Assembly: GCA_050613775.1 (NCBI GenBank)
Contig: JBODTK010000014.1
Span: forward strand, 992,001 to 1,056,000
Length of the DNA stretch: 64,000 nt
Source of the DNA: Neocallimastix sp. 'constans'
Taxonomy: Eukaryota
Direction: 5' to 3'
Below are positions 18,186 to 61,526 of this stretch, one piece after another (position 1 is the stretch's first letter; each line of letters begins with the position of its first letter). The notes beneath the pieces are model-generated. The model did no database searches and had not been told where the DNA came from. It saw only the letters and a list, made by a program, of their open reading frames with translations. A program made the position numbers and the translations under genes.

Positions 18186-18925
18186 TGTGTGATACGGGGT
18201 GTCATTAAATACCTTGTATTTCCTATTAAATACTCTTAATTGTTGAAATTATATCTGAATTGAAATCTCAATTTCAGTTATTTACATTTCAATAATTAAA
18301 AATATTCTTTATTTAATTATAATTAATAAATAATATATAATTATTAATTTATATAAACTTTTATTTGGAAAGTTTATATAATTAATAATTAATATAAATT
18401 CTTGTTTAATATTTAAAGGGTTATCTTAGGCCTAATAATTCTGAGAATATTAATAAATAAGGTTTATATTAATAATTAATTTCAATACTACATTTGATCT
18501 AAAACAAATATGTGTAGTAACATATTTGTATATTTAATAATAATTATTAAATATTAAATTTATATCTTTTGATAATAATTTTTATAATATATTATTAATT
18601 ATTATATATTAAATTACATATTATTTATTATAAATCACACTTGATTTATTAAATTTTTGTTCAAGAAAATTTTCTACATAATAATATTATTTACATTTAA
18701 AATTTATATTCCTATCTATAATAATTTTACATTGATTCATATGATATATATCATTAAATGATATACGCCACAGTATACATAAATTTATTCTTTATAATTA
18801 TATTTATTTATTTACACTAAAATTTATTTTATACTTATTTTATATTTATTTATTTTTTATTAATTATTTATTAATTATTTATTAATTATAAATATTAAAC
18901 TTATTTCTGACATTCCCCCATAAGT

Positions 18926-20489
18926 TTAATATTCTTGGATTTTCGTTAATAAAGTGTCTCGTAACGTTTTCATTATGGACCCATTCAGATTCTTTGTCAA
19001 AAAGTCAGCTAAATTATTTTGTGATTTTACATACTCTAATTTTATTTCTTCCTCTTTAACTAATTCTCTAATTTTGTGATATTTTAAATCTATGTGTCTT
19101 GATTTTTGATTTATACTTTCATTTTTACTATTATAGATAGCAGCTTTATTATCTACATTTATATATATATATTTTATATTTATACCTAACTCATTAAGTA
19201 GATTTTTTAACCACATACACTTTAGAGCCCATTCATTCAAACTATAATATTCACTTTCAGCAGTAGAAACAGCCACACAATGTTGTAATTTAGAATACCA
19301 GGTTATAGGCGTATTTCCCATGATTATTAAAAATCCGCTAGTAGATCTTCTTGTTTCTTCGTCCCCTCCTAAGTCAGCGTCGACGTAAGCAGCTATATTT
19401 ATATTTTTTGATATTTTTATTCCATAATATTTAGTATAATTTAAATATTTAAATATTTTTAAAACATTAATCCAATCTTCATAAGTTGGATTTTCATTCT
19501 TTCTTGAAGCCTTACTAGTAGCGAACATAATATCCGGTCTGGTGCCCATGGCAAGATATAACAGACAACCTACAGCTTGCATATATACCTGTGGGTTAAA
19601 TTTTCTATTTTTTAATTTTTTATTTTCTATATTGATCATATTAGATGCCTTTTCATTTTCGTTTATTTTAAATTTATCTAATATTTTTTCTAGATATCTT
19701 AATTGATGTAAAATGTAACCATCTTTACATTTTATAAATTTTATCCCTACAATGAAGTCTACATTTCCAATATCGCTTAATTCAAAATACTTATTTATTT
19801 CTAATTTAACTTTATTTATTGTTTTATTATTCCCTGCTATTAATATATCGTCAACATAGATTGCAATAATACATAAAATATTTTTATACTTATCTTTCAG
19901 TATGTACAAGCAAGGTTCACTTTTTTAATCTTTCAAACTTAAGTTCTAGGAGTGTTTTATTTATTTTATCATTCCAGATGCGGCCAGCTTGCTTCAATCC
20001 ATATATAGATTTTTTTAATTTAATATACCCTCCTACATCCATACCTCTAGGAATTTCCATATACAATTCCTCATTAATTTCTGCATTTAGATAGGCAGCC
20101 TTGATGTCCAATTGATATATATTAAAATTATTATAAACAGCTATAGAAGTAATTATTCTCAGAGAATCTTGCTTAAGGGTAGGTGAGAAAGTGTCAACAT
20201 AATCCACACCATACACTTGTGAAAATCCTCTTGCTACTAACCTTGCTTTATATTTTGTTATGTTACCTTTATCGTTTCGTTTATAACTAAAAACCCACTT
20301 GCAGCTGATTAAATTTTTTTCTTTTGGTACTTCATTGACTATTTCAAAAACTTTCTTTTCTTCCATATTTTTTAATTCCTTATTTATAGCTTCTATCCAT
20401 GAGTTTTTATCTGGTCTATCGAATATTTCTTCATAGGTTAATGGTGGGTCTAATTCTATTGTCTTATTTGTTATTAAGATATTCGTCAT
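18926..20489 (-). pseudogene. Copia-1 reverse transcriptase/RNase H, frameshifted near 19915
   Basis: KARLVARGFSQ, QLDIKAAYLN, YVDD, YVDADLGGD, STAESEY motifs. Confidence 0.93.
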
Positions 20490-21858
20490 TATTTGTTTAT
20501 ACTTTTTGTTTACATTATTTTCACTCTCATTTAATTTTCTTTTTAAATTATAATTATTTATTTTTTTTCCTTTATTAAATTCAATTTCGTTAATTGAATT
20601 ATTTAATTTATTTTCAATTTCATAATTATAATTATTTAAATTTGTAATTTCATTATTTTTATTTAAATTATGTTTATTAATAATATTATCAATGCTACTT
20701 CCTGGTTTGTTTACATTTTCAATAAATTTTTTTTTTTTAAATTTTCAATTAAATTATTTTTATTTACATTGTTAATTGAATTAATTTCATTATTTGAATT
20801 ATTATATGAATTATACTCATTATTGCTAATTTCATTTTTCTTACCATTTGAAATTAAATTGTTTAAATTGTTTCCTGTATTATTTGAATTTCCTGTTTGT
20901 TTATTTAATTGTGTTAAATTTGAATTTTGATCATATAATTTACTTTTTGAATTAAATTCAAATTTAAATTTTCATTTCCTGAATAATTATTAATTTTATT
21001 ATTATTTAAATTATCATTTTTATTATTATAGTTTTTATTATTTAATTCAGAATAATTATTATTTTGGATATTATAATTTTCAAAATTGCCATTTGAATTA
21101 TTTAAATGACCACTTTGAGAATTGAAATCCTCATAATAATGTTTTGGAGAAGAAAAATTTTGTTTTAAATTATTATATATATTATTATTTAATTGTAAAT
21201 TATTATTATTTAAATTATTGGCTGATTCAGAAAAAATTTTTTGAGCTGGATACAAAATTAAATTTCTGTTATTCTGTGGATCATAAAAAATTTTATAATT
21301 ATTTGAATAAATTAAATTATTTTGATTAATTGGAGAAGTATTATTTATATTATATTTATTAATATTTATATTATTTTCATTATTGACTTCATTATTATTA
21401 GTATTAATATTATTATTATATGGAGTATTTATGACTGCACTTTCGTTATTATCATTAATATTAATATTATTATTATTATTATTATTATTTGGATTAATAT
21501 TATTATTGTTATTATAATTGTTAAAGTATTAAATAATATAAATAAATAAACTTAATAATTTAGGTTTATAATTAAATAATAGAAAATATAAATCATAAAT
21601 ATTTATGTAAAAAACTAAACCTAAAATGTAAATTAACATTATTTATGTTAATACATAGTTAAATGTAAATCATTAGATTTATCATGCGCATGTAAATAGT
21701 TTCTTTATTCTTGTTTATTCACGTGAAATAGTTATATAGTTTATATAAAAATAATTGTTTATTTTATAGACGAAAATTCGCGACTTTCGTCAATATAATA
21801 TTTTATAATAAATAAATAAATGTATAAATTATTAATAACTAAATAAATTACTTTAATA

Positions 21859-21873
21859 GATTAAGAGTCTCAT
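21859..21873 (+). other. PBS complementary to the tRNA-Lys(CUU) anticodon arm
   Basis: GATTAAGAGTCTCAT directly after the 5' LTR. Confidence 0.85.
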
Positions 21874-22045
21874 CTGTACTCTTAACATTCTCATATAATA
21901 TTGATAAAATAATATAAAATATCTTTATTAAAATAAAATATTAATTAAATAAAATATTAATAAAATTACATAATAAAAACACAAAATAATCTTCTTAAAA
22001 CCCAAATATATAATAATATTAATTATTAAATTAAAAATCAATTAA

Positions 22046-25000
22046 ATGAGTGATTTTATCCCGTTCAAAAAGGAAGCCATATTGAATGGCAAAAATTTTA
22101 ATATATGGTATGATAATTTAACGGACATATTGGAGAAAGATGACTTAGCTGAATATCTAACTAAAGATATATTGGAAGAAGCCAAAAGGGACAATACCAA
22201 AAAGGAAGAAGAAATAAAGGAAATCAAGAAAACGAACACAAAAGTCCGTTATATTATTAAAAATACCATAAATTCCAAAATCCATGAAGATATTATTGGC
22301 ATGAACACTCCATATGCCATAATAAATTATCTAAGAGAAGAATACAAATTAAGTGAGAATGACATGACTCAATGGATTAGTAAACTTAAAAATGTCAAAG
22401 CTGAAAAGGAAACAGAAATACCTTCAGCTATTAAGGAAATCTTTAAATTATTTAATGGCATGAACTCCTCCGGAAATATTATCTCCGAAAAAGAAAAAGT
22501 AAAATATTTATTAAGAGCATTACCAAAAAGTTATAAAATGAAATTAACTTTAAATGGTAATGAAACAGCCGAAGAATTAAAAACAACTATAGTAAAAGAT
22601 ATAAACACCTGGTTATATGTCGATGAACAAACAGATAAAGACCAACGACCATATGATCCAATGGACATCGACTATGCTGGGAAACTTGGATACAAGAATA
22701 GGAAAAATTTAAAAAACAAGAACAATAATAAAAATTTTTCAAAAAAAAAAAAAAAAGGAAATCCAAGTAAACAAAACAACAAAGAAAAATTTAATAATAA
22801 TAAATATAACAATAATAATAAATACTGCGAAATCTGTGAAAGGAGGGGTCATTCTACCAAAGAATGTAGGTATAATCCAAGAAACCCAAATGGATTATAC
22901 AATAAATACTACATTCAAAATGAACAAAAATTAAATAATTATCACACTCATAATAATTGGCATAATGGAAGACCCATAAGATATATTAATTTAAATGATG
23001 AATATAATGAAAATATATCTTATGATGATATAAAGCCAATGTTTTATAAATACTATGATCCTAAAGGAAAAGGAAAATATGAGAATAATGATGATGATGA
23101 TTCAGATGAATATCAAGAATCTGAAAAATCAAATTGTTTCATAAATTATGATAAAGAAGACGTTAAAAATGAAGTTTTAATTAAAAATAATATAATAACA
23201 CGAGTAGAAAATAAATTAAATTTAGCTAAAGAAATTTTTATAAATAATATTAATAAAAAGGAAATAAATACAAATAATACAAATGAAATTTTTAATATTA
23301 ATTACAATAAAAAAGAAACATCAGAATGGTTATATGATTCAGGTGCTGGTGAACATATAACTAATGATCTAAGTCTGCTTAAAAATTTTAAAAAAGAAAA
23401 AATAAAGTTAAGATGTGCAAATAATACTTATTGCTATTTTGAAGGCCATGGTGAATTTGAATTTACTATTAATAATTATCATTTTAAATTTAACAAAGTA
23501 TTATATTCAAAAGAAGTAGCTAAAAATATTATTAGTGGAATAGAATGGGCAAAACAAGATGTTAAAACCTTGACAGAAAAGGATAAACACAATAATATTA
23601 TCCTCAGAATTTTAGATAACAATTATAATATTATTGCCACATTCCAAGCTAATGATAACAATGAAGTTAAAATTGTAGTTACTCATTTCAATATTGAAAA
23701 CGAAAGAAACTCTAAGAATAATATTATGGCAATTCAAAATTTTCGTAATGCTGAAGAACTAATTTGGCATCGACGGCTTGGCCATTTCTACCAAGAAGAT
23801 TTGAAAAACTTCCTAAACCATCATGAAATTAACTTAGATAAGTGTGACGATTGCAGAATCGCGAAAATGAAACGCAATCCACACAATAAAATTCCTCCCA
23901 GAGCCAAAGAAATATTAGAAGTTATCCACTCGGATATTATTGGTCCAATTAACACATCATACACAGGAAAAAGGTTTATACTTACTATCTTAGATGAAGC
24001 TTCTAGAAAATCATGGGTTTTTATAATGAAGAGTAAATCAGAAGCTACTGATATTATTATCAATACCTTAAGAATGCTTAATAATAAATATAAGGATCAT
24101 AAAATTAAAGTTTTTAAATCGGATAACGCAAAGGAATATAAAAACAAGAAAATTGATTCCTTTTGCAATGAAAATGGAATTGAAAAAGTATTCTCTCCTC
24201 CGTATAATCCTGAAAATAATGGACTATGTGAAAGATTTAATCTTACTATTGTTTCCTGCGCGAAAACCTTGTTATATTGGAGTGGACTTAGTGAAAACTT
24301 CTGGGACTTTGCGATATTATACGCTAACTATATATACAACAAAGTTCCTCATTCTGGAATTCATAACAAAATTCCAGATGAAATATTCTACAAAAACAAA
24401 GTAAAAATTAATCACATCAAGGTATTCGGTTGTATCACCTTCTATATTGACAGAAGCCAAAATAAATCCAAATTTTCACCTAATTCTAAGAAAGGAATTT
24501 TTCTTGGATTTAGTGAAAAAACTAATAGCTATATTATTATGGATTTCAATGATAATTCAATTCATTATTGTAGAGAAATTTACTGTTTAGAAGATACTCC
24601 TGCTAATGTAAAATTAGCAAACAATAAATCAAATCAATATGGTGATCAGGAATTTCTTACTTTTGATTTTTATTTTTCGAAGAATTTACCAGACTCATCT
24701 GGTGGAGAAAATCATAAAGCTGGTAACCATAGTAGTAAACCTTCTGAAAATAAATTTAATAACAACAACAAAGAAAATAGCAAAAATACCAAAGAAAATT
24801 ATTCATCATTACCTATCACAAACAATGATGATTTACAAGAAAATTTAAATAAGGACAATTCCCCTAAAAGAGATAAAGGGAAAAGCCCAGAGACTGAGGA
24901 TTCTAACGATACCAATATCAATAATAATATTGGTAAGGACAAAGAAATAAAAATCGCAGAAGAAGAGACCCAAAACTACAAAAATCAAGAAAATTTCAAA

Positions 25001-27343
25001 AATCATTCTGATGAAAATTTTTCTGATAATAAAAATTTTTCAAAAAATGAAGAAAATTCAATAAACAAAAACAAAAATTTTAATGAAACCTTATCGAATA
25101 ATAATTCTAATCAAGAGAAAAATTTTTCTGAAAATTCAAATATAAATAAGGTTAAAAATTCTAAAACTCAAAATAATAATAAAATTACTGATGAAGAAAA
25201 ATTTTTTGATTTTAACGACAAAACCTTATTTAATAAGAAATCCAATAATCAAGGAAAAGTTAATGAACAAACCAATATGTCTTCAAATAAATCTAATATA
25301 ATTAAAGAAAATTTTAATAAAAATTTTTCTGAAACAAATATTAAAAATAATATATCTACCAGTACTACTGATAATATATCTAAATCCAAAAATTTTTCAA
25401 ACCCAAATTATTATAATTTTCCTTCTTCTTCTCAAGAAAATACTATGTTTAATAGAAATAATATTATCTCTTCTTACATCGACAAAAAGTTCCCTTTTAA
25501 TGGCAGAAGAAGTGTTAAAGAACTACATATAGATAACCAAAATTCTTTTAATACAAATTCATTCAATAGAATTAATTTACCTCATCATAGGAGCAATTTT
25601 CATTTCAAAAATAATAAAAATTTTGAAAATGGAAATATTGATTATTTATTTTCAAATAATCATTTTAAAATTAAGAAAAATAATTATTTACATATTAAAA
25701 AACAGTTTAATTTTAAAAAACACGGAAGGTCACTTTCGGACGATTTAACACCTTCCCAATCACAAAAATTTCGTAGATCAAACTTTAATTCAAAAATTAT
25801 TGCTACTTTGGATAATTTTGTACCCCAATCATTTTTCCAAGCCACAAATTGTAAAGACCACGCTCTATGGGAAAAAGCTATGGATAACGAACTGGATAAT
25901 TTTTATACTAATAAAATTATGACTTTTGTGAACAATATTCCAGATGGTAAGAAACCCATTCCTTCCAAATGGGTCTACGCTCTTAAGACTGATGGTCTTG
26001 GCCATATTATTAAACATAAAGCTCGTTTTGTCGCTAAAGGTTTCTCTCAAAAATATGGCATTGATTATGAGTTGACTTTCTCTCCTACCCTTAATATCGA
26101 TTGTTTAAAACTTCTTATCTCCTTAGCTGCTAAATTTAAATGGGACATTCTCCAATTAGATATCAAAGCTGCGTATCTCAACGCGGATTTAGACAAAGAT
26201 ATCTATGTCAAAATTCCCCCTGGAGATCCTAACTTTGGGAGGGGATATTGGAAATTGAACAAAGCATTATACGGTTTAAAACAATCTGGCCGACAATGGT
26301 ATAATACCATCTCTAAATTTTTAATTGAACAAGGAATGGAGCAACTAAAATCTGAAAGTTGCGTTTTTAAGAAAATCGTAAATGGAAAATTAGTCTGTAT
26401 AATTGGCTTATACGTAGACGATATGATTGTTACTGGAGAAAAGGAAGAAATTAACAAAATCTTCAATAAAATTAAAAACAAATTCAAGATCTCAAAATCT
26501 GGTCCAATAGACTACTTATTGGGAATTAAAGTTGAAAATAGAAATAACACTTATACATTATCTCAAACACAATTTATAGAAAATATTTTAAAAACATTTA
26601 ATATCAATAACAAAAGACTAAGAAAAACACCATGTGTTGGTGATAATACAATATCAGAAAATAACCAACCATTCAACAAAACAAAATATAAAAGTGCAAT
26701 TGGTATGTTAATTTATTTATCAAAATGTACCAGACCCGACATTGCATTTTCAGTCAACAAAGCTGCCAGAAATTCAGAAAATCCAACAGTATCTGACTGG
26801 CACAAAGTTATTGCAATATTACAATATTTAAAAAATACCAAAAATTACAAAATTAAATATGATGGCACTGGTAACATTGTAGGTTACACAGATTCAGACT
26901 TCGCTGGTGACGTTACTGACAGAAAATCAACATCAGGTAATATTATCTTAATGGGAAATAATCCAATATCCTGGACCTCGAAAAAACAGTCAGTTGTCGC
27001 CACATCAACAGCAGAAGCTGAATACATAAGTGCGTCAGTATGTATCAAGAAATTATTAAGAATTAAAAATATATTATACGAATTACTCAAATTTAATAAA
27101 CCACTAACATTATTCACAGACAATAATGCAAGTAAAATTTCAATGGAAAATGGAGAATTAAATCCAAAATTAAAACATATTTCAATTAAATATCACTTTA
27201 ATAGAGACAATATTGAGAAAAATTTAATTAAATTAAAATATATCAGTACTGATAAAATGCTAGCTGACACATTAACAAAATGTGTAAATGGTACTAAAAT
27301 GACAACCTTTGCAAATCAAATTTTCATTACAAATGAAAACTGA
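22046..27343 (+). CDS. Copia Gag-Pol polyprotein, 1765 aa
   Basis: CEICERRGHSTKEC knuckle, WLYDSGA protease, WHRRLGH/CDDC and DDE integrase, YVDD RT, YTDSDFAGD RNase H. Confidence 0.97.
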   Translation: MSDFIPFKKEAILNGKNFNIWYDNLTDILEKDDLAEYLTKDILEEAKRDNTKKEEEIKEIKKTNTKVRYIIKNTINSKIHEDIIGMNTPYAIINYLREEYKLSENDMTQWISKLKNVKAEKETEIPSAIKEIFKLFNGMNSSGNIISEKEKVKYLLRALPKSYKMKLTLNGNETAEELKTTIVKDINTWLYVDEQTDKDQRPYDPMDIDYAGKLGYKNRKNLKNKNNNKNFSKKKKKGNPSKQNNKEKFNNNKYNNNNKYCEICERRGHSTKECRYNPRNPNGLYNKYYIQNEQKLNNYHTHNNWHNGRPIRYINLNDEYNENISYDDIKPMFYKYYDPKGKGKYENNDDDDSDEYQESEKSNCFINYDKEDVKNEVLIKNNIITRVENKLNLAKEIFINNINKKEINTNNTNEIFNINYNKKETSEWLYDSGAGEHITNDLSLLKNFKKEKIKLRCANNTYCYFEGHGEFEFTINNYHFKFNKVLYSKEVAKNIISGIEWAKQDVKTLTEKDKHNNIILRILDNNYNIIATFQANDNNEVKIVVTHFNIENERNSKNNIMAIQNFRNAEELIWHRRLGHFYQEDLKNFLNHHEINLDKCDDCRIAKMKRNPHNKIPPRAKEILEVIHSDIIGPINTSYTGKRFILTILDEASRKSWVFIMKSKSEATDIIINTLRMLNNKYKDHKIKVFKSDNAKEYKNKKIDSFCNENGIEKVFSPPYNPENNGLCERFNLTIVSCAKTLLYWSGLSENFWDFAILYANYIYNKVPHSGIHNKIPDEIFYKNKVKINHIKVFGCITFYIDRSQNKSKFSPNSKKGIFLGFSEKTNSYIIMDFNDNSIHYCREIYCLEDTPANVKLANNKSNQYGDQEFLTFDFYFSKNLPDSSGGENHKAGNHSSKPSENKFNNNNKENSKNTKENYSSLPITNNDDLQENLNKDNSPKRDKGKSPETEDSNDTNINNNIGKDKEIKIAEEETQNYKNQENFKNHSDENFSDNKNFSKNEENSINKNKNFNETLSNNNSNQEKNFSENSNINKVKNSKTQNNNKITDEEKFFDFNDKTLFNKKSNNQGKVNEQTNMSSNKSNIIKENFNKNFSETNIKNNISTSTTDNISKSKNFSNPNYYNFPSSSQENTMFNRNNIISSYIDKKFPFNGRRSVKELHIDNQNSFNTNSFNRINLPHHRSNFHFKNNKNFENGNIDYLFSNNHFKIKKNNYLHIKKQFNFKKHGRSLSDDLTPSQSQKFRRSNFNSKIIATLDNFVPQSFFQATNCKDHALWEKAMDNELDNFYTNKIMTFVNNIPDGKKPIPSKWVYALKTDGLGHIIKHKARFVAKGFSQKYGIDYELTFSPTLNIDCLKLLISLAAKFKWDILQLDIKAAYLNADLDKDIYVKIPPGDPNFGRGYWKLNKALYGLKQSGRQWYNTISKFLIEQGMEQLKSESCVFKKIVNGKLVCIIGLYVDDMIVTGEKEEINKIFNKIKNKFKISKSGPIDYLLGIKVENRNNTYTLSQTQFIENILKTFNINNKRLRKTPCVGDNTISENNQPFNKTKYKSAIGMLIYLSKCTRPDIAFSVNKAARNSENPTVSDWHKVIAILQYLKNTKNYKIKYDGTGNIVGYTDSDFAGDVTDRKSTSGNIILMGNNPISWTSKKQSVVATSTAEAEYISASVCIKKLLRIKNILYELLKFNKPLTLFTDNNASKISMENGELNPKLKHISIKYHFNRDNIEKNLIKLKYISTDKMLADTLTKCVNGTKMTTFANQIFITNEN

Positions 27344-27689
27344 TTTGAGGGGGAGTGTTAAAGTATTAAATAATATAAATAAATAAACTTAATAATTTAG
27401 GTTTATAATTAAATAATAGAAAATATAAATCATAAATATTTATGTAAAAAACTAAACCTAAAATGTAAATTAACATTATTTATGTTAATACATAGTTAAA
27501 TGTAAATCATTAGATTTATCATGCGCATGTAAATAGTTTCTTTATTCTTGTTTATTCACGTGAAATAGTTATATAGTTTATATAAAAATAATTGTTTATT
27601 TTATAGACGAAAATTCGCGACTTTCGTCAATATAATATTTTATAATAAATAAATAAATGTATAAATTATTAATAACTAAATAAATTACT

Positions 27690-30321
27690 TTAATAATAAT
27701 TATCATTATCAATAATATTATTGTTAATATTATTATTATTATCACTAATAATATTATTATTATTATGAAAACCAATATCATCGTCAATATCACTTCCCCC
27801 GTTTTCATAATAAGGAGTAAGATTAATAAAGTCCGGAGAAGAAGAAAGGGCATCACAATTACCGGATGAGTCTTCAAAAAATACAACGGCACGAGAGATA
27901 ACTACTTTATTATTAGTAATATCATAAATACGAAAAGCCGAGGGGTTATTATCATATCCAAGAAATATTTCTGGTAAAGCCGAGTTGGTTAATTTGTTAC
28001 GTAGTTGTTTGGGTACATAAAAAAAAACTTGACATCCAAATACTCTAAATTTCTCGAAGTCCACTTTTTCATCATAAAGAAGTTCATAAGGAACATTGTA
28101 ATTGATACCTTTATGTGGGATTCTATTATATATAAAATTAGCAGTAGCAACTGCATCTTCCCAAAATACGTGATTAAGGTGTGCATCCTCCAACATAGCT
28201 CTAGCATTAGGAATAAGAGAACCGTGAAGGCGTTCAATCCTTCCATTTTATTGAGGAGAATAAGGAACAGTGTATTCATGAATGATACCGTTTAAGTTAC
28301 AGAAATTATCAAAGTTGTTATTGGAAAACTCCGTTCCATTATCTGTTCTAAGATGTTTGACACTTTTATTAAAAATATTCTTCACCTTTAAAAACCAATT
28401 ATGAAAAGCGTTAAATACGTCACCTTTGGATTTTAAGAAGATGACCCAACCGAACCTTGAATAATCATCTAAGATAGATAAGATATATTTATTTCCGTAT
28501 AAAGAGTAGTCGCTAATAGTAACTGTGTCCATATGGATTAATTCAAAAGGCTCACTTGCTCTTTTAATATTTGAATAAAAAGGGAAATTTCTTAACTTAG
28601 ATTTTGCACATATCTTGCATTTATATTTATTATTTATTTTTGGGAGTGTGTCTTTTAAGCCTTCAATATTAAAGTGACCCAATCTTCTATGCCACATATC
28701 AAGAGAGTCTATAACATTAGATGATGAGGAATAGGAGTATGCCTTACTATTATTAAATGTTATTTTATTTTTAGAAGTCCACATCACATATGTATTTGAA
28801 TTATTAGCGCATGCGCAACATACTCTGTTACTGTTTTTGTTGTATATATGACACCACTTTTTATTTTTAATTTTTTGAAAAATTGTTTTATAATGTTGAT
28901 CACTGAGACCATCAATAGAGATAAGGTTCTTCTTGAACTCAGGAACATATAAAACATTTTTTAATGTAATTTTGTTATCATTGACATATCCCTTATAAGT
29001 ACTAATGAATTTTGACTTCACGAAATCACCATTAGCAAAAAAGATTTTTTTATTATATTTTTTCTTGTCTAAAAGACAATTTAAGTCTCCTGTCATATGA
29101 TAAGTAGTACCTGAATCCAATGTCCAGGATTTCAATTCATTATTTAGTTTTTCTTTATCATTTTATTCGTCGGTTATATAATAATTTAAGTCATTATAAG
29201 GTAGGAGTGAATTTGTATTGTGGTTTGACTCAATACTATATGAGTCATTATAGTTTTCGAAGAAATATTCTTCGTGTTTATCCTTATAATTCATTTGTTC
29301 TTGTGGGTTATTATTGTTTGTTGAAATATTATTTGAAATAATTTTTTTATTTTCTGTAATGCCTCCCCTTATTATTTTTGTAAAATTTTTGGTTATTGTT
29401 ATTATTACTTCTTTTTCTGGAAGGACATTCATCAGAAAAATGTCCTAAACCTCCACAATTCCAACATTTAACATTATCCTTATTTGAATTTCTTTGCTTA
29501 TTAAAATTATATTTATATTTGTTATTATTTCTTGGTTGAAAATTTTTATTATTATTATTATAGTTATATTTTTTATTATTGGATCTATTATATTTATTAT
29601 TATTATTATAATTTGCTTCACTTTTTATTTCTGTACTTAAAACAGTAGATTCATTTGATTCTACTTGAATATTCTTTTCTTTTAAATAATTCAAATGTCG
29701 ATTAACTTCTATTATGAATTTGGTTACCTCTTCCCACGCTCCCTGATGATTTATTAAATTTGATTTGATTACTAAGTCTTCAGGTAGAGAATTATATAAA
29801 TAATCAAATTTTTCTTTCTGATTTAATTCATTATTTAAATCTCCAAGTTCATTAAACTTCATACTCATATTGGAGATAAAAACTGATAAAGGCATTTCAT
29901 TAGGAATAAATTTTGTTTTACTAAGAGAGCTCTTTATCTCTTCTATACGATTACTTTCATCACTTATATTTATGCCTTTGATTATATTATATATTTCAAA
30001 AGCAGAAGAAGATACAAAGTCCAGGTTACTAGCTAATTCCCTTTTTATACTATTAAAAATAATTTTTTTGGCCCTGGCATCACATTTTAACATAGGCTTA
30101 GTTACAGATTTATCATAGAATTTTCTTGTTGTTCCTGGAACTGATTTATAATTCTTTCATTCTTCTTCAGGTATTTCATCTTCGGAAATTTTTTTAATGC
30201 TTTCCTTTAAGATATAATTTCCCAAATCTCTTTCTTGTAGTAAAAGAAACAAATCTTGTTTCCATGATTTAAAATTGGAATTATCCAAGATTTCCAAGGT
30301 AGCATTTTCCTTGTTTGTCAT
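27690..30321 (-). pseudogene. Copia-1 gag-protease-integrase with stops and frameshifts
   Basis: CWNCGGLGHFSDEC, WTLDSGT, WHRRLGH, LRTDNGTEF, VPYSPQ, FWEDAV across several ORF pieces. Confidence 0.93.
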
Positions 30322-31082
30322 TTTATTCACACTTATTAAAAATACACTAAACACAATAAATTATTAACACTCACTTATTGAGTCAATGAGACTCTTAATC
30401 TGTTATAAATCACACTTTTTATTTATTAAATTTTTGTTCAAGAAAATTTCCTACATAGTATTATTTACATTTAAAATTTATATTCCTATCTATAATAATT
30501 TTACATTGATTCATATGATATATATCATTAAATGATATACGCCACAGTATACATAAATTTATTCTTTATAACTATATTTATTTATTTACACTAAAATTTA
30601 TTTTATACTTATTTTATATTTATTTATTTTTTATTAATTATTTATTAATTATTTATTAATTATATTAAACTTATTTCTGACATTATTTTATAATATATTA
30701 AATTATATATTTATTTTATAATTATATATTATTATATTAAAATATAATAATATTCTTATATTTAACTTTAATAGGATTTTTATTATATTATATAATATAT
30801 TATTATGTATTATTTTATATTTATTTTATATTTTATATATAATATACATTTATTATTTAAATATACATATTGTATTCTTATATATATATAATTTATATTA
30901 TATGTTTAAAATATATTTCATATTATTAAATTTTATAATTTTAAAATGTAATTTCTTAATAATAACCAATTTCTAATAAAATTAATTTAGAAAGGGGTTT
31001 TTAGTTTTTAGGAAAAGTAATAATAAATTAAATAAAGATATAACTATATTATTATAATTAAAATATAGCACATAAAAGTCCC

Positions 31083-31779
31083 TGATATAAAACAAATATG
31101 TGTAGCAACATATTTGTATATTTAATAATAATTATTAAATATTAAATTTATATCTCTTTTGTCAATAATAATATTTGAAATAATTTCTTATTCATATATT
31201 ATTCAATATTTATATATATATTATTCATTATAATATAAAATATATTAAATATATTAAATTAAATAGTTAATTTCTTCTAAATATATATAATAAGAATATT
31301 ATTATATATATAACTTAACTATTCATATTTATTTTAAAGTTTATATTAAAAATACATAATACTTCTATATATTATAATATATAATATAATGAAATAATTT
31401 TAGTTATTTTAATTATAATTAAATATATATAGTTGATATTATTTATTATATTCATATTTATTATATAATTATATTCTTATATATTTAACTTTATTATTCT
31501 TATTTTCATTTTAAGAATTATATAGTTATATTTATTATATTTATTATTTTAATATATATTTATTATATATTATACTATACTCCGATATAATATATTTTAA
31601 ATGTATATTTATTATTATTAATATTTATTAAATTATTATAAAGATTTCTAATAACTACTCTTCTTTATTGTAATTTAGAGAAGACCCTTGGTTAAATGGG
31701 TTTTTAAATTAAAATATATGGTTAATTAAATATAACGATACTATTAAAAATTAGTAGTACATAAAAGTCCCGCATATCA
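31083..31779 (+). mobile_element. Solo LTR family D, inner copy
   Basis: TGATATAAAAC...CCCGCATATCA; TSD TCCC; 3' half matches the Gypsy 5' LTR at ~59393-59788. Confidence 0.88.
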
Positions 31780-37718: not shown

Positions 37719-40700
37719 ATGTTTGACGCAACAAAACTATTAAAAGTATTACCAATTCTATCCAACTATGGAAGAGATATTGATAGTTGGATTAATGATT
37801 TCTCTAAAGTAATGGCTTTGTATGATATTATTTAACCAAGACAAATATTTACATGGGCTAAAGAGGTTGTTGAAGATGATATTCAAGGCGTTTTAAACTC
37901 TCTTATAACAAAAAGAGGTTCAGAAATCAAGTACCCTACGAAAAAGGAAGTTCAAGAAGCAATTGAAGAATATCTGAAGATTACAGAAAGTGAAAAATGT
38001 TCTATCTTGAAATCCTTAAAAATTTCTAATGTAGAAACTATAAAGAAATTTAATTATAGATACAAAAAGTTATATAATAAGCTTAGTCAAGAATATAGAA
38101 AACTTGTTACTGTTAAAGATTACACAAACTCTATTAGCTCAAGAATATTCGCATGTTCCAGAGTAACTGTAGCCGAATGTGAAAATGTAACTGAAGCATT
38201 CAAAATTGCAGAAGACGCTGAAAAGGAAATCATTTCAAATATAAATCAGGCAATGCCATATATAGGAGGAACCCCTATGATGATTACTCAAACTAATATT
38301 AATCAAAACCTAATATTAAATCATCCAATTTATGGTGAATTAATAAATGGACAAGCTAATTTAAATTATGGATTAAATTATTATCCTAATAATAATACCT
38401 TATTTATAGCAACTAGAAGAAACGATGTATCAAAACTTTGAGGTCCCAATATTGACACTAATAACTATAATATATATAATACATGTAACCATCAATATAG
38501 TGGCTATAATAATGGATATTATAATAATAATAAAAGTTATAATATGAAAAATAATACTCAATTAATGCGGTTTGGAAATTTTAAAAATAGATCATATAAT
38601 AACAGATATAATCAAAATAACTATACTAGGGGGAATTCTACTTTTATTCTGTAAAAGGAAATTCTAATAATCAATTCCTTAACAATAATAATATGACAAG
38701 TTATGATATTAATAATTCTCACATGATAAACAACAATAATAATATGATTAATAGAAATTCTAATGATCGCATGAATAATAGTACAAGAAGAAGACACTAC
38801 AATGATGCATCTAGTGGAACTATCATATGCCATAAATGCACCATGCACGGTCATAAAGCTTTCGAATGTACATATACTTACAAACAATTGGCAGACATGG
38901 AAGAAAAAGGATTAATTAAAACTCCTTTAAACCAGTAAATGGGAGAAGGACAACTTCCATGAAACAAACCCATGACAATAGTTTCAATAATAATCTTGAC
39001 AATAAACAAAATTATAATAATAACATAAATGACAATCAAAATAATAATTTTATTACGACGAAAATACCTATCAACTCATTAATGACCAATAATAACAATA
39101 GTGACAATAACAACATGACACTTTCAAAAAAATTTCCTAATCAAGAAGATCAATCACATTTATATAACACAGAAATTGTGGCGGCTGCTACAAGGAAATC
39201 AAAACCAAAATTTAATAAAGTTAAACCATATGATAAGAATAATACAATAAATAATTTAAAAGATCAACCTACCTCTATAATTACGTCAGCAATGAATCAT
39301 AATACTAATTTATCTATTAGTAATAATAATACTAATAATAATAGTTATAATAATATTAATAATAATAATAAAATGAATAATAATATAATTAATAATAATA
39401 ATATAATTAATAATAATAATAAAATGAATAATAATATAATTAATAATAATAATATAATTAATAATAATAATAAAATTAATAATAATAATAAAATTAATAA
39501 TAATAATAATGATAGTGATAGTAATAGTAATAATATTAATAATATTAATAATAGTAATGATAAAAATAATGATAATAATATTAATAGTAATCAAAGTGTT
39601 ATACCTATACAAGATGATATCGAAATGCTTGAATCTGAATTAAAAGAAGAAGAAAAAGATAACAATAATATATACTACAGTGAAACAAAGGCTAAAAATA
39701 AGAAAACTGTGAAATTTTCTTTAAATGAAAGTGAATCTGTTAATAACACTAAAGATAATCATAGCACCACAGAAAAATTAGAATCTTTAGATCCTTCCTT
39801 CATTACTGAAAAGAATATTATTAATGCTAAAAAGAAAAATAAACAAGAATGTATCAGAGAAATTAAGGAACAAATTAATGATAATAAAGTGAAAAACAAT
39901 ACTCAAGAATTACCTATTAATAATAAGGAACCTCACATAAATTTAATGAAGACTTTTGAAGAATACTGCATTCAAGATTTAGTTAAGGAAATAGCTTCTA
40001 CTGAAGTAATTACCAGGCTAGCATATTTTCTGGATCTATTCCCCAAATTTCGATCTGAATTTATGAAGGCTTTAAAACTTACACCTAAAAATACTGTTAC
40101 TAATATCATAATATCATGACAATAATTAACAAGAATAAAATTATTAAAGTAAATGGATTTGTCGAGAATAAATCATGTGAAATATTTTTGGATTCTTGTG
40201 CTAGTCTTAATGCTATAACAAGATCCACATTAAATAAATTAAAAATTAACAAACCTGCTATTGGTACTATCTCGGAAACAATTTTACAATCATATTCTAA
40301 TTCCACTATTGCTAGTGAAGTAGTTGAATTAAAAATTTCCATTGGGTGTTGAACGTTTGTTGAATATTTCAGGATCATTGAAAAAGATGACATTTTTGAA
40401 GTCTTAATAGGTGTCGATTCTCTCAAGAAAAATAGATTTGATATCAATTTAGTTAAAAATAAATTATATTATATTGATGAAAATAATAATTCTACTGAAT
40501 TAGTTGATCTATACTATGATATCGACTCACCTATTCCAAATCCAGAAAATTATGCTCAAGAAGAACATATTGAACAAAACCCTATGTTGATAACAGTAAC
40601 TGTTGTAAATGACGAAAATAACGATGCAAATGATTCTGATACAATTAAACAAAATATAATTGATGAAATTATACAAACTATACCTGAAAATTTCAAAAAA

Positions 40701-42026
40701 ATCGTGAAAGAATTATTTTATAAAATTTTGGTATTATTGCAATAAAAACAGATGATCTTGGTAAATCAAAACTTCTCCCTTATAGGATCTAACCAGTGCC
40801 AGGTGCCCAACCAATAAAACAAAAATCACACAGAATACCTAAATCTCTCATAGATGTATTAAAATAGGAATTAATAAAATTAATTGAAAATTACCTTATT
40901 GAACCTTCTTTCTCGTCATGGTCTTCACCGGTGGTACTTGTTCCAAAAAAAAATGGTAACAAATGGCGATTGTGTGTGGACTATCGCAAATTGAATAATG
41001 TTACCATTAAGGATGCTTATGCACTACCCTTAATCGATGATATCTTTAATTACATTGGCAATAATTCCCAATATTTGTCTACTATTGATTTGTTTTCTGG
41101 GTATCATCAAATACCCATGGCTGAAGAAGAAAAAGATAAAACAGCCTTTACCACTATGTTTGGAAATTATAACTTCAGAGTCATGCCATTTGGGTTATGC
41201 AACGCTCCGGCTTCATTTCAACGTGAAATGAACAGAATTTTTATGGACTTAATTGGTGTTTTTCGTTTTTATTTATATTGACAATATTATTGTATTTTCA
41301 AAAACATTAGAAGATCATATTAGTGATTTGGGTAAAGTTTTTAAAATTTTAAATGATAAATGAATTAAAAATAAATATTGAGAAATGTACCTTTTTCAAA
41401 AATAAAGTCACTCTCCTCGGTCACATTCTTTCTACCGAAGGTATTTCCCCCATTCCTAAGAAGGTCAAAGTTATTATAAACTGGATTCCTCCTAAAGACA
41501 AAACTCAATTGCGATCCTTCCTTGGCGATATTGGTTATTACCGAAAGTTTATTTACAACTTTGCTTAAATTGCATATCCATTGTTCCAATTACTTAAGAA
41601 AGATGTTCCTTTTATTTGGTCTGAGGACTGCACAGTCGCTTTCGAAGAACTGAAAAATAAATTAGTAAGTGCCCCTATTTTAACACCTCCTGACTATAAG
41701 AAAACATTTATTATTCGCACGGACGCATCAAGGACAGGCTTAGGTGATGTTTTACTTTAACTTAAAGATAATATAGAGGTTCCAATCTATTTTGAAAGTA
41801 GATCCCTTTCTCCTTCGGAAAATAGCTACAGTGTTACTGACTTGGAAGGAAAGGCTATGTTCCACTGTGTAAGGAAGTTCAAGTGTTTTCTCACTGGTAG
41901 CCCTTTTGTGACAACCCTGTATACTGATCATAAGCCCCTGGTTAGTATATTCTCTAATAAAGAACCTCTTACTAGTAGACATCTTAAATGGGTAACGGAA
42001 GTCAATATTATGAACGTGAAATTATA
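37719..42026 (+). pseudogene. Gypsy gag-pol remnant
   Basis: CHKCTMHGHKAFEC, IFLDSCA, WRLCVDYRKLN, VMPFGLCNAP, LYTDHKPL; many stops and frameshifts. Confidence 0.92.
38926..38960 (+). promoter_or_regulatory. Putative -1 ribosomal frameshift signal
   Basis: T TTA AAC in gag frame, 6-nt spacer, stem ATGGGAG/CTTCCAT; the -1 frame is open into ORF 38959-40119. Confidence 0.75.
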
Positions 42027-42576: not shown

Positions 42577-43325
42577 GTTTGATAAGAATGTACTAAATAA
42601 TGCATTCTTAATTAAATTTACGATTTATTTCTAATACATAATGTGTACATTATTATTTTTGTACTTTAATAAATTTTTTAAATTCAAAGATTAAAAATTA
42701 AATCAAAAATTATATTAAACTTTATATTTTTATATTATATCTTATATTAATAGTAATATTTTTATATATTTAAAACTTATTGTAAAGATATGATCAATAT
42801 CTTTAATACATTAATTAATTTATTTTGTACATTAAATTATTTAATGTAATTCACGTTTACAAAATAATGCTAATGCATTAAATTATGTAAAATATATTAA
42901 TTTATGAAATTAATTGATTTATGAAAATTAATAATAAATTTATATTTCATATAATATATAAATTTAAAAATATAAAATTAATTTTTAAATAACCTAAAAT
43001 TTAGTAATAAAATATATTAATAATTTTAGTTTAGTTTAATTTTAATTTAGTTTAATTTTAGTTTAGTTTAATTTTAGTTTAGTTTAATAATCATAAAAAT
43101 TAAATAGTAATATATAATTAATAGTATTAATAATAAAAGAATAATAAATAAATAATAAATAAGAACTTATTCAATTTGAGTCAAAACAAATTGAATAAAA
43201 AGCTTATTGAATTAGTTTTAGTTTTTTATAACTTTATTTAATTTTAGATTAATTTTTGTTTATTTTATATTGAATATATATTTAAATAAATAGAAATAGT
43301 ATATTATAATATAATTAAGAAAAAA

Positions 43326-43372
43326 TATAAATACATGTAAAATTATTCTATTAAAGAAAATGTAGTTGTTAT
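43326..43372 (+). promoter_or_regulatory. LTR TATA box and predicted transcription start / self-primer
   Basis: TATAAATA 43326-43333; GTAGTTGTTAT 43362-43372 is the exact complement of the PBS. Confidence 0.75.
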
Positions 43373-43537
43373 TAACTATTTTGCAGTTAATAACTAATAA
43401 AAAGAATTTTTATAATAAAGTGATTAATAAAAGAATTTTTTTTAAAAATAAATTTCATTTGAGTATTGTTATTGATAGTGTTGTTTTTTTTTTTTTTTTT
43501 TCGTAATTGTAATCTGCTCCATAAGGAACATTTTACA

Positions 43538-43548
43538 ATAACAACTAC
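43538..43548 (+). other. Self-priming PBS
   Basis: ATAACAACTAC abuts the LTR, lacks TGG and is complementary to 43362-43372. Confidence 0.85.
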
Positions 43549-43585
43549 CTTGTTATAAAAAGTGGAGCACGTTACGATCACGAGA

Positions 43586-43780
43586 TTAGAGAACTACCAG
43601 TTAGAGAACTACCAGTTAAAGAACTACCAGTTAAAGAACTACCAATTAGAGAACTACCAGTTAGAAAACTACCAGTTAGAGAATTACCAATTAGAGAACT
43701 ACCAGTTAGAAAACTACCAGTTAGAGAATTACCAATTAGAGAACTACCTATTAGAAAACTACCATTTGAAGAATTACTAA
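43586..43780 (+). repeat. 15-bp tandem repeat, ~13 units, in the chromovirus leader
   Basis: Unit TTAGAGAACTACCAG. Confidence 0.92.
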
Positions 43781-44051
43781 GAGAAGAAACAAGAAGTAAT
43801 AATAGAAGAAGTACTATTTGAAGAAGTACTAATTATAATTGCACCCATTAAGTCGCCGCCGTGATTACTAATTATATTGGAATATTTGAGATTATTTTTA
43901 TTTAAACTTATTATTATTATAATAATTTTGTTTACTCGACGGGCACCATTTCAAGCGGTTAGAGCCAAGTCGACTTTACATAATATTATAATAGTAAATT
44001 TAAATAAAAATAATAATCGTATATAAGAATTCTTTTATTTTTTTTTTCAAA

Positions 44052-45467
44052 GTGGAAGAACTTAATATTAGGCTAAGAAACCTCCACATTGAAGATATGG
44101 CGGAACGTGGACGAGAAGAAAAACGGAAGGTCAGTAAGCCACCGATTTTTAACGGTGAAAGAAAAGAACTTAAAGGGTTCCTCACAATTGTAAATATGAA
44201 CTTTGAGGATACCCCAGATGACTTTCCAGACGATAGATCAAAGGTTAGATTTATAACCTCATTCTTAAGAGGTGATCCTTTAAATTGGGCCTCAAATCTA
44301 TGGGATAATGAAGATCCCTTGATCGATAATTTAAATAATTTTAAGAGGGAACTTAAAATTAATTATGGGGATCCAGAAGTGGAGACAATTGTGGCTAATG
44401 GTAAATTAGATACCATTCGTCAGAAAAAATATGGGCAAGTGTTAGAATATATTAACCAGTTCAAAACAACTTGCCAAAATTCGGACTTCAACGAATCAGC
44501 CAAAATTTATATGTTTCTTAAAGGATTACATTACAAAATGAGGGAACAATTAGCCGTTGTTAACCCAAATCCAGATTCCCTTAACAAGTTGTATACCGAT
44601 GTAATTCAAATTGAAAATTTGTCAAAGCGAACTAATCTTGTTGAATTCTATTATAATCAGCAACGAGTTAGAAATTCGCAACAAAACAGTAACCACAACC
44701 AGAGAAATAGTAGTCGTCGTGATGATCCTATGGATGTTGATTTATTTAGGATCAAAAATGATAGATATAGAAGATACAACCAGAACTATAATCAAAATTT
44801 ATATGTTGAAAATAAAAGAGACTTTTCTGAAGAAAAGAAAAAAGGTCTTTGTTTTTTATGTAAACAACCAGGACACTTACAGTTTAATTGTCCTAACAGA
44901 AAAAGACCTTCTGGAGTTAAACACAAGAATAAAATTAGAGAAACAGATGAAAATCTTCCATCGGCAAAATTAAGAAGAATTAGAATGATCAAGGAATCCG
45001 ATGATGCTCAAAAAATTAGAGCTATTACTGATGAAGAAAATGCTATGAATAAAAGAAAGAACAATATAATTACTTTCTATATAAAAACAAATGATATTGA
45101 AGAAGTTCCAGTTAGGGTTCTTATCGACTCTGGCTCGGATTTGAATTTTATTCATCCTTCGTTCGTTAATAAAAACAAAATTAAATTGAATGAAGTTAAA
45201 AGATCTTTCAATGTTACTGGACTAGGATATGGTATCTCTACCATCTACGAACAAACTGAAAAGTGTATCTTACGATTCAAGAACCATTTTGAAGTTATTC
45301 AACTCTATGCACTTTATATTCCTGATGTAGATATCATTCTAGGTATTCCTTGGATTGAAAAGCATTGTCCAATGAATTATCATGATTCAAGAAAAATATC
45401 CTTTCCCTCTGGTTATTGCGCTAGGAACTGTAATAATGGTAAAAGAAAAAGAAAAAAACAAAAATAG
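44052..45467 (+). CDS. Chromovirus Gag plus protease (first ATG 44097)
   Basis: PPIFNG capsid motif, CFLCKQPGHLQFNC, VLIDSGS, ILGIPW. Confidence 0.9.
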   Translation: MEELNIRLRNLHIEDMAERGREEKRKVSKPPIFNGERKELKGFLTIVNMNFEDTPDDFPDDRSKVRFITSFLRGDPLNWASNLWDNEDPLIDNLNNFKRELKINYGDPEVETIVANGKLDTIRQKKYGQVLEYINQFKTTCQNSDFNESAKIYMFLKGLHYKMREQLAVVNPNPDSLNKLYTDVIQIENLSKRTNLVEFYYNQQRVRNSQQNSNHNQRNSSRRDDPMDVDLFRIKNDRYRRYNQNYNQNLYVENKRDFSEEKKKGLCFLCKQPGHLQFNCPNRKRPSGVKHKNKIRETDENLPSAKLRRIRMIKESDDAQKIRAITDEENAMNKRKNNIITFYIKTNDIEEVPVRVLIDSGSDLNFIHPSFVNKNKIKLNEVKRSFNVTGLGYGISTIYEQTEKCILRFKNHFEVIQLYALYIPDVDIILGIPWIEKHCPMNYHDSRKISFPSGYCARNCNNGKRKRKKQK

Positions 45468-47310
45468 AAGCAAGAAAGGTTCAAAGAAGTGTAAGATCGA
45501 TATCGAACCTGAAGAAGAAAATTCCTATGAACCAAGTACTCCATATAAGTGTAAACCCCTCTGGGATTCCGAATCAGAAAGCGAAGCTGAATACGTCCGT
45601 GGAAGAAAAGTTAGAACCATTAATGATAGTGATAGTGATAGTGATAGTGATAGTATTAATATTAGTGTTAAAGATAATGATTGTAGTAAAGAAAAAATTA
45701 ACTTTTGTAATTTTAGAGAACTTAGTACAATAGATAAAATCAAAAAATCATGTAATTTTATTAAATCATGTAAAAATGAAATTTTAAATAAAGAAAGTAA
45801 ATTGGTCGCCGAACTAACAAACTATTTTTTTTCTTATCAAAATTGTGTGTTAGACAATTTGTGTAACTGTCTGATTATTCAGAATTTAGATAATAATAAT
45901 ATTGTTAACGATAGTGATAATAAAATTTCTATTCCTCCTTGTTATCTCGATTATATTGAAGTTTTTGATGAAAAGAATTGTGATAAATTACCTCCCCATA
46001 GAGAATATGATTGTGAAATAAATTTAAAGGATAATTCAATTCTATTCTATGGTCCTATTTATCCTTTAACAGAAGCAGAAAGGGATGAATTGAAAAAGTA
46101 TATTAAAGAAAACTTAGCAAAAGGATTTATTAGAAAATCCAAATCACCAGCTAGTGCCCCTGTCTTATTTGTTAAAAAGAAAGATGGCACTTTGAGATTA
46201 TGTATTGATTACAGAAAATTAAATGAAATGACTATTAGAAATTCATATCCTTTACCATTAATAAGTGAATTAATTGACAGAGTTAAAGGTGATAAATATT
46301 TTACTAAGTTAGATCTTAAATCTGCATATAACTTAGTAAGAATAAAAGAAGGTGATGAGTATAAGACTGCTTTTAGAACTCGTTATGGACATTATGAATA
46401 TCTTGTTATGCCTTTTGGGTTAAAGAATGCACCTGCTACATTTCAACATTTTATAAATGATGTTCTTAGTGACTACTTAGATGATTTTGTTATCTCATAT
46501 ATCGACGATATTCTTATTTATTCAAATAACTTAGAAGAACATCATGAACATGTTAGAAAAGTGTTGAAAAAACTTTTAGATAATAATTTATATGTTAAAC
46601 TAGAAAAATGTGAATTCGATGTAACGGAAACCTCCTTCCTGGGCTACATCATATCTAAAGATGGTCTTAAACCTGATCCTGAAAAAATTAAAGCTATTTT
46701 AGATTGGCCTGTACCTACTAATGTCAAAGAAGTTCAGTCATTTATTGGACTTTGTAATTATTATAGAGTTTTCATTAAAGATTTTGCCAAAATAGCTTTA
46801 CCAATACATAAACTCACTCGTAAAAATGTACCTTTTATTTGGGGACCTGAGCAACAGAATGCTTTTGTTAAATTGAAAGAACTTTTCACATCTGCTCCAA
46901 TTTTAATTAATCCTGATAGTAATAAACCGTTTATCGTTGAAACTGATGCTAGTAACTTTGCAGTTGGAGCTGTACTTTCTCAAGAAGTTGATGGCAATCT
47001 CCATCCAGTTGCCTTTATTTCTTCGAGTTTGACTAAGTCTCAAAGAAACTACCCCATTTATGATAAGGAACTTCTCGCTATTAAAGTTGCTTTAGAGCAA
47101 TGGCGTCACTTTTTAGAGGGTGCTCGTCATCCCTTTACTATTTACACTGATCATAAAAATTTAACATTTCCTAGAAAACCGGAAATGCTTTCGCAACGTC
47201 AAATTAGATGGTATGAATTTTTATCTCGTTTTGATTTTAATATTGTCTATAGATCTGGGAAAAAATCGGGTAAACCTGATTTACTATCTAGGAGAAGTGA
47301 TCATTTTTAA
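45382..47310 (+). CDS. Chromovirus reverse transcriptase/RNase H (frameshifted segment of pol)
   Basis: LRLCIDYR, VMPFGLKNAP, YIDD, ETDAS, YTDHKNL. Confidence 0.92.
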   Translation: MIQEKYPFPLVIALGTVIMVKEKEKNKNRSKKGSKKCKIDIEPEEENSYEPSTPYKCKPLWDSESESEAEYVRGRKVRTINDSDSDSDSDSINISVKDNDCSKEKINFCNFRELSTIDKIKKSCNFIKSCKNEILNKESKLVAELTNYFFSYQNCVLDNLCNCLIIQNLDNNNIVNDSDNKISIPPCYLDYIEVFDEKNCDKLPPHREYDCEINLKDNSILFYGPIYPLTEAERDELKKYIKENLAKGFIRKSKSPASAPVLFVKKKDGTLRLCIDYRKLNEMTIRNSYPLPLISELIDRVKGDKYFTKLDLKSAYNLVRIKEGDEYKTAFRTRYGHYEYLVMPFGLKNAPATFQHFINDVLSDYLDDFVISYIDDILIYSNNLEEHHEHVRKVLKKLLDNNLYVKLEKCEFDVTETSFLGYIISKDGLKPDPEKIKAILDWPVPTNVKEVQSFIGLCNYYRVFIKDFAKIALPIHKLTRKNVPFIWGPEQQNAFVKLKELFTSAPILINPDSNKPFIVETDASNFAVGAVLSQEVDGNLHPVAFISSSLTKSQRNYPIYDKELLAIKVALEQWRHFLEGARHPFTIYTDHKNLTFPRKPEMLSQRQIRWYEFLSRFDFNIVYRSGKKSGKPDLLSRRSDHF

Positions 47311-48934: not shown

Positions 48935-50301
48935 AGGGCGAGATTGTAAAGATATGATCAATATCTTTAGTACATTAATTAATTTATTTTGTACATTAAA
49001 TTATTTAATGTAATTCACGTTTACAAAATAATGCTAATGCATTAAATTATGTAAAATATATTAATTTATGAAATTAATTGATTTATGAAAATTAATAATA
49101 AATTTATATTTCATATAATATATAAATTTAAAAATATAAAATTAATTTTTAAATAACCTAAAATTTAGTAATAAAATATATTAATAATTTTAGTTTAGTT
49201 TAATTTTAATTTAGTTTAATTTTAGTTTAGTTTAATTTTAGTTTAGTTTAATAATCATAAAAATTAAATAGTAATATATAATTAATAGTATTAATAATAA
49301 AAGAATAATAAATAAATAATAAATAAGAACTTATTCAATTTGAGTCAAAACAAATTGAATAAAAAGCTTATTGAATTAGTTTTAGTTTTTTATAACTTTA
49401 TTTAATTTTAGATTAATTTTTGTTTATTTTATATTGAATATATATTTAAATAAATAGAAATAGTATATTATAATATAATTAAGAAAAAATATAAATACAT
49501 GTAAAATTATTCTATTAAAGAAAATGTAGTTGTTATTAACTATTTTGCAGTTAATAACTAATAAAAAGAATTTTTATAATAAAGTGATTAATAAAAGAAT
49601 TTTTTTTAAAAATAAATTTCATTTGAGTATTGTTATTGATAGTGTTGTTTTTTTTTTTTTTTTTCGTAATTGTAATCTGCTCCATAAGGAACATTTTACA
49701 CTTATATTAGCAATATTAATAATAAATCTTATTTTTTTATTATTATATTAATAATGAAAATTTGTATTAATAATATTTTTATTTATTGATAATTAAAATT
49801 TATATATTATATTTTTAACTTTTATTATAAAATTTTATATCAAAATGTTTTATTTTATATTGAAAAATTTTTTATTTTATTAAAAACCTTTATATTAGAA
49901 TAGTATTTTTATTTGAATATTTTAACAGATTTTAATAATAGTTATAGCCAATTAAATAAATTCTTATTAGTAATATTTTAGATAGATTTTTCTTATAAAA
50001 AAAAATGTTTTATTAATATTATAAATGTATTTTATTTATATTGTTATAATTAAATTTTATATAATTGATTAAAAAATCAATTTAAATTTAATAGTTTTTA
50101 TAAAAAAAATAAAATGTAATAATATAAAATTTAGTGGCAAGAACAACTTTTATGCCCTAAAAAAAAAAAAAGTATAAATAGTTGTAAATTTTGCTACCAA
50201 TTTTTAGAAAATCATCATAAAAATAAAGAATTAATATATAAAAAAAATCTTTGTATTTATTATTGTTTTCTATTTAATTTCTCATAACCTTAACATGTTT
50301 G

Positions 50302-61492: not shown

Positions 61493-61526
61493 AAAAAACT
61501 GATTAATGGAAGAAGGCAAACTTCCA
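61493..61526 (+). promoter_or_regulatory. Putative -1 ribosomal frameshift signal
   Basis: A AAA AAC just before the gag stop, 7-nt spacer, stem TGGAAG/CTTCCA. Confidence 0.7.

Follow-up and report, generated by a model that had tools for sequence, protein, structure and literature searches.

Copia retrotransposons of a likely anaerobic gut fungus share a putative primer-binding site for a tRNA-Lys(CUU) half

Three LTR elements and the 14-nt site they share

The window, by which we mean the whole 64-kb stretch of DNA analysed here (18% GC), contains three elements with paired long terminal repeats (LTRs) and 5-bp target site duplications (TSDs). Copia-2, on the forward strand, is bounded by a 5' LTR at 21519-21858 and a 3' LTR at 27356-27695, which begin with TG, end with TA, are 340 bp long, agree at 340 of 340 positions and are flanked by the TSD ATAAT. 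Between them lie a single, intact gag-pol ORF of 1765 amino acids (22046-27343), in which the domain order is gag-protease-integrase-RT-RNase H and an SH3 domain was also detected, and a polypurine tract (27342-27355). Copia-2 is nested within Copia-1, which runs on the opposite (minus) strand and whose 5' LTR (30401-30682; 282 bp, TG...CA) and 3' LTR (18626-18912, preceded by a polypurine tract) share 275 identities over 280 aligned columns, with the TSD AATAA. The gag-pol region of Copia-1 (18926-30321, minus strand) is disrupted by stop codons and frameshifts and is interrupted where Copia-2 inserted; its ORF pieces carry gag, protease, integrase, SH3 and RT domains.

The third, non-coding element is also on the minus strand. 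It has a 5' LTR of 209 bp (55891-56099, TG...CA), a 3' LTR at 52761-52965 (201 of 205 positions identical between the two; TSD TATTA) and a 2.9-kb internal region (52966-55859) with a polypurine tract at its 3' end, within which there is no ORF of 60 amino acids and no tblastn match at E < 0.01. The initial annotation described all three as Copia elements. This holds for Copia-2 and Copia-1, which combine LTRs and TSDs with the protease-integrase-RT-RNase H order of Ty1/copia (Pseudoviridae), whereas the third has no coding remnant and is Copia by cis signals only, the link being its termini, its primer-binding site (PBS), a polypurine tract nearly identical to that of Copia-2, and its likeness (70.6% identity over 153 nt) to a locus, L074, that encodes a copia-type gag. 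A GC-richer island within it (55130-55285, minus strand) is predicted to fold strongly, with z = -4.35 on the element strand and -3.67 on the other. The island is single-copy in the window, has no Rfam match at E 1 and found no match in the contigs of four runs, where absence is no proof; it could represent a captured structured RNA, or a signal for packaging or dimerisation. With its LTRs, PBS, polypurine tract, TSD and a non-coding interior of 2.9 kb that contains the structured island, the non-coding element resembles LARDs and TRIMs, which are non-autonomous LTR elements; it is represented here by a single copy.

Directly inside the 5' LTR of each element lies the same 14-nt sequence, at 21859-21872 (+) in Copia-2, 30387-30400 (-) in Copia-1 and 55877-55890 (-) in the non-coding element. 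These three are the exact copies in the window; one more copy, with two mismatches, is at 9494. Shuffled versions of the window contain on average 0.32 matches at up to two mismatches, and the number of exact copies expected per window is 1-3 x 10^-4 (Markov orders 1-4). The initial annotation had placed a shared site without TGG just inside the 5' LTRs, and both points were borne out: TGG is absent and the spacing from the LTR end to the 14-mer is 0 nt in all three elements. The length first given, 15 nt, was one too long. Across 16 elements, all selected by the 14-mer (the three in the window and 13 among the matches listed), the 15th base varies (A in seven, T in four, G in four, C in one), and the dinucleotide before the 14-mer is CA or TA in 15 of the 16. 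The 60 nt 3' of the PBS are poorly alike (median pairwise alignment score ~0.4 per base over 17 elements, with L067 added) while the 14-mer is constant, which argues that the 14-mer is held by selection. The LTRs had been described as unrelated; their bodies are indeed unalignable beyond AT-rich noise, but the elements resemble one another in their termini and polypurine tracts, and the RTs of the coding pair are 45% identical, and we therefore regard the three sites as homologous rather than independent.

Both LTRs of Copia-2, an apparently young and intact element, end in TA rather than CA (21857-21858 and 27694-27695; compare 18626-18627), and TA also stands before the PBS in relatives (ATA in four and TTA in one of the 16 elements). 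The integrase of this Copia clade may tolerate a TA terminus.

The window holds further LTR elements. A chromodomain Gypsy element, or chromovirus (42781-49700, +), has near-identical 758-bp LTRs, and the 11 bases that follow its 5' LTR (43538-43548) have a perfect complement within the LTR (43362-43372), a Tf1-type self-priming signature. Another LTR element (59379-64000, +) has a PBS that starts with TGG (~59793), the usual type directed at a tRNA 3' end, and fragments of a zinc knuckle and an integrase lie downstream; its LTR is 92% similar to a solo-like LTR at 31375-31779. A broken Gypsy-type element (37836-41281, +) retains a zinc knuckle and an RVT_1 fragment.

The tRNA-Lys(CUU) match and relatives of the elements

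The 14-mer is complementary at 14 of 14 positions to nt 27-40 of tRNA-Lys(CTT) genes from other eukaryotes, which serve here as surrogates. A modified base 26 of the tRNA could block copying, and a conserved stretch that ends at nt 27 would fit such a block. In a 73-nt tRNA-Lys(CTT) gene (L070) the complement of the 14-mer occupies nt 27-40, the CTT anticodon being nt 34-36, and human tRNA-Lys(CTT) as given in PMC8216282 also contains it. The earlier assignment of the complement to the anticodon arm of tRNA-Lys(CUU) up to about nt 40 is thus exact in the surrogate genes, where the PBS complements the arm and the primer would end at nt 40. Since hemivirus cDNA synthesis begins at the 3'-OH of nt 40 (PMC1181622), this is a known register.

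A search with the 14-mer plus an AT-rich run as query, covering metagenome contigs (43 of 64 parts scanned) and genome and MAG contigs, returned at least 161 loci, at least 119 from metagenomes and 42 from genomes. At least 34 of them are at a tRNA-Lys(CTT) gene (three overlap on one contig), and unrelated contigs carry the complementary arm in many different 5' halves of tRNA-Lys(CTT). Among 31 matches to a 15-mer in viral contigs, four loci have tRNA-Lys(CTT) at the match. The 64-kb window contains no tRNA gene, an Rfam scan of 55700-56050 gave chance-level matches only and none to a tRNA, and none of the 34 tRNA loci listed is assignable to a gut fungus. L130, the most AT-rich tRNA locus, was considered as the host tRNA-Lys and rejected, its tRNA being identical to that of L039, a telomere-capped, ciliate-like contig. 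Three loci (L156, L181 and L182) are on a 13-kb contig densely packed with eukaryote-type tRNA-Lys(CTT) genes, which is filed in a bacterial MAG and is a likely contaminant.

Metagenome and MAG contigs yielded at least 13 further distinct element loci with the 14-mer, nine identified as elements by tblastn to the Copia proteins and four by blastn to the window elements. Left out of the 16-element set were duplicates (L076, L107 and L139) and unproven loci (L067, L080 and L099); a polypurine tract and LTR were found at L067 later. Twelve loci were tested for flanking signals, and at eight of them a polypurine tract and an LTR of 218-300 bp run directly into the site. In an RT phylogeny, which had been proposed as a check on the initial annotation (125 rows, quick search, SH-aLRT, midpoint root), every one of the eight RT rows in which the site is known (two are nearly identical) belongs to a single branch of 49 rows, supported at SH-aLRT 99, which also contains an Orpinomyces protein; site-carrying rows occur in both of its sub-branches. 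The site is likely ancestral in this Copia clade, given rows that were picked by the site and a PBS state read for eight of the 49 branch rows.

Four Orpinomyces gene models are the nearest named protein relatives among the matches listed (73, 63, 62 and 45% identity), and the other named eukaryote matches there are plant, oomycete and animal proteins at no more than 40%. No named ascomycete protein is in the best 120 matches of either protein search, and protein clusters of ten proteins carried no eukaryote names. Half or more of the Copia-2 words occur in 20 of 24 runs among the matches listed, mostly labelled feces metagenome. From the Orpinomyces relatives and the GC content of 18% we infer that the host is likely an anaerobic gut fungus (Neocallimastigomycota). 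In viral contigs no Copia relative was found by protein search or alignment, and a FunCo1-type pattern (see below) led to a Copia match at 0 of 121 loci.

Some relatives have features of their own. At L080 and L107, an LTR end and an identical PBS are followed, ~620 nt on, by a long ORF without a match to Copia proteins, and the PBS region of L107 is common to L074; L080 and L107 are possibly non-autonomous elements that carry, or precede, host genes. L183, a gut-fungal-type Copia contig with the PBS, is filed in an archaeal MAG and is most likely a binning contaminant.

Folding, tRNA pairing and the choice between explanations

The PBS is predicted to fold back on the bases that follow it. 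An [AG]CTC motif lies at most 11 nt after the PBS in 12 of 16 elements and in 8 of 91 background loci (Fisher p = 7e-8), the background having been cut from 108 loci by removal of repeats and short flanks and differing from the elements in composition. The predicted fold of the PBS plus 22 nt averages -7.3 kcal/mol in the elements and -3.2 kcal/mol in the background, with shuffle p < 0.05 for the hairpin in 12 of the 16. When the PBS was paired with windows from farther downstream, at most 1 of 59 matched its true neighbour in 12 of 17 elements (L067 added); in Copia-2 the predicted hairpin (21861-21885, +; -7.3 kcal/mol, shuffle p 0.014) is stabler than all 59. Over 61 nt, the predicted folds of the PBS regions of the three window elements are no more stable than those of dinucleotide shuffles (z -0.7 to -1.2; -0.93 for Copia-2). 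The predicted 14-bp primer duplex has -19.8 kcal/mol, against -3 to -12 for the hairpins.

Beyond the PBS of the non-coding element, an extension (55860-55876, minus strand) is predicted to pair with nt 8-24 of the tRNA, in the D arm (-15.8 to -17.3 kcal/mol, p 0.002-0.006; 500 shuffles, three surrogate tRNAs), or alternatively to fold back on the PBS. The likeness to the D arm initially noted at 55860-55890 therefore stands for this element and for a subgroup, since pairing to tRNA nt 1-26 is significant, with the three surrogate tRNAs, in four of 16 elements (the non-coding element, L074, L183 and L105). It is not lineage-wide: pairing is not significant in Copia-2 or Copia-1, the mean over the 16 elements is not above background, and a general D-arm extension of the lineage was rejected. 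Because tRNA-Lys has internal repeats, a complement of its D arm also folds back on the PBS, and the hairpin and D-arm readings therefore overlap; in most elements the letters that discriminate between them point to the hairpin, the motif being preceded by A in 8 of 13 and CTCT being followed by T in 6 of 9. For Ty1 and Ty3, primer pairing that is extended or bipartite has been described (PMC5371799).

We propose, with a probability of roughly 85%, that the 14-nt site is the PBS for a 5' half of the host tRNA-Lys(CUU) ending at nt 40. Half-tRNA priming, as put forward in the initial annotation, remains the best reading of a 14/14 match that sits flush with the LTR in 16 diverged elements with no self-primer, and its steps can be outlined from sequence as follows. 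A host tRNA-Lys(CUU) with this arm would be cut after nt 40, as in copia and Ty5, and its nt 27-40 would anneal to the PBS, the weak predicted hairpin being displaced by the stabler 14-bp duplex, a step probably aided by the Gag zinc knuckle. RT would then extend from nt 40 straight into the LTR to make minus-strand DNA, and in the subgroup the bases downstream of the PBS would also pair with the D arm. For the non-coding element the primer would be the same, and its proteins would come from an autonomous partner of this Copia clade.

Other explanations have to account for the same site. The primer might be another host RNA, or the host tRNA-Lys might pair over fewer than 14 bases, with the match to other eukaryotes partly incidental; this gains some ground from the fact that the tRNA-Lys genes compared are not those of the host and that the gene search was itself conditioned on the 14-mer. 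We consider it quite improbable nonetheless, as the match is bounded exactly by nt 40 and nt 27, conservation ends at the 15th base, and the arm recurs in the distinct 5' halves described above. The site could instead act as a cis RNA structure, like the Conserved Hairpin Site of GalEa, a fungal element in which a hairpin replaces the PBS (PMC5445492), the tRNA match then being a relic. The enrichment of the fold-back motif fits this, as does the A before it, which suits a hairpin and not C25 of the tRNA. However, the 14-mer is fixed while hairpin partners, loop lengths and the paired half vary (a point weakened by the choice of the set by the 14-mer), predicted loop bases are conserved as much as stem bases, and four of the 16 elements have no significant hairpin, so that we hold a purely structural role to be very improbable.

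Self-priming in the style of Tf1/TAR, in which the transcript's own 5' end anneals to the site and is then cleaved off to act as primer, would explain why TGG and spacer are both absent, as they are in self-priming elements, and the PBS of L079 can fold onto U5 (p 0.05). Yet in each of the three window elements the LTR complements the site over at most 7 nt, even with G-U pairs allowed, which falls short of the ~11 nt taken to mark a self-primer, whereas the identical test recovered the perfect 11/11-nt self-primer of the chromovirus as a positive control. Self-priming would also not keep a site fixed across unalignable LTRs, and we judge it extremely improbable. U5 pairing as a replacement for the downstream hairpin was rejected, being weak in L079 and not significant in L094, L090, L051 and L032.

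A more elaborate form of tRNA-Lys half priming can also be drawn up, in which a gut-fungal Copia clade distinct from FunCo1 gained it independently and a conserved hairpin gates it by selecting pre-cut halves. The stem would hide the bases that could pair with the anticodon loop of an intact tRNA, and the loop would expose the 3' end of the PBS as a toehold for nt 27-31, which would be free only after the tRNA had been cut. We think this unlikely; if it were true, cleavage before versus after annealing would be directly testable with the intact Copia-2.

Known half-tRNA systems and what the elements add

Candida Tca2 uses half-tRNA priming with tRNA-Arg. Half-tRNA priming had also been called established for copia and Ty5, with which the literature agrees: the hemivirus type comprises Drosophila copia and 1731, yeast Ty5 and Volvox Osser (PMC1181622, PMC10275265, PMC5371799), its primer is tRNA-iMet, and priming has been demonstrated experimentally for copia and Ty5. 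The elements described here resemble this type in their Copia domain order, internal PBS and primer end at nt 40, and differ from it in that the primer we infer is tRNA-Lys(CUU) rather than tRNA-iMet. Lineage-specific half-tRNA sites are likewise found in plant Ty1/copia, where Osser, Bryco and Gymco-II have a half tRNA-Met and Bianca a half tRNA-Ile (Neumann et al. 2019, PMC6317226); non-Met halves were therefore already known. The plant lineages differ in tRNA and host, and half tRNA-Lys is absent from the accessible text of that survey.

The initial annotation regarded a Lys-half lineage as unfamiliar, a view that has to be given up. The fungal Copia group FunCo1 has the PBS ATTAAGAGTCT, described by Donnart et al. 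(2017, PMC5445492) as the complement of an internal stretch of tRNA-Lys, and this sequence is contained wholly within the 14-mer at all three sites. FunCo1 was found in 270 fungal species, almost all of them Pezizomycotina, unlike the likely neocallimastigomycete host here. In the available parts of PMC5445492 the FunCo1 PBS is termed classical, half-tRNA priming, a PBS hairpin and D-arm pairing are not discussed for it, and the supplementary texts name no anaerobic or other early-diverging fungi by the names looked up. We suggest that the elements would work like FunCo1 and the hemiviruses; membership in FunCo1 is not claimed, as the host range differs. The primer type is already in print and is not new. 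What is new is the likely Neocallimastigomycota host, a non-autonomous user of the site, the predicted fold-back of the PBS, and D-arm pairing in a subgroup only. A literature search mostly outside subscription journals found no published work on the Copia PBSs of anaerobic fungi.

An annotation pipeline that seeks only 3'-end (TGG) sites would record no PBS for these elements. Our results extend the internal tRNA-Lys PBS, until now a matter of one sentence for an ascomycete clade, to a likely early-diverging fungal phylum. Copia-2 offers a usable model in which to study the making and loading of half-tRNA primers, since its LTRs are identical, its ORF is intact and part of its sequence is present in runs from at least 18 studies. 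The tRNA-Lys half trait is either old in fungal Copia or has arisen more than once.
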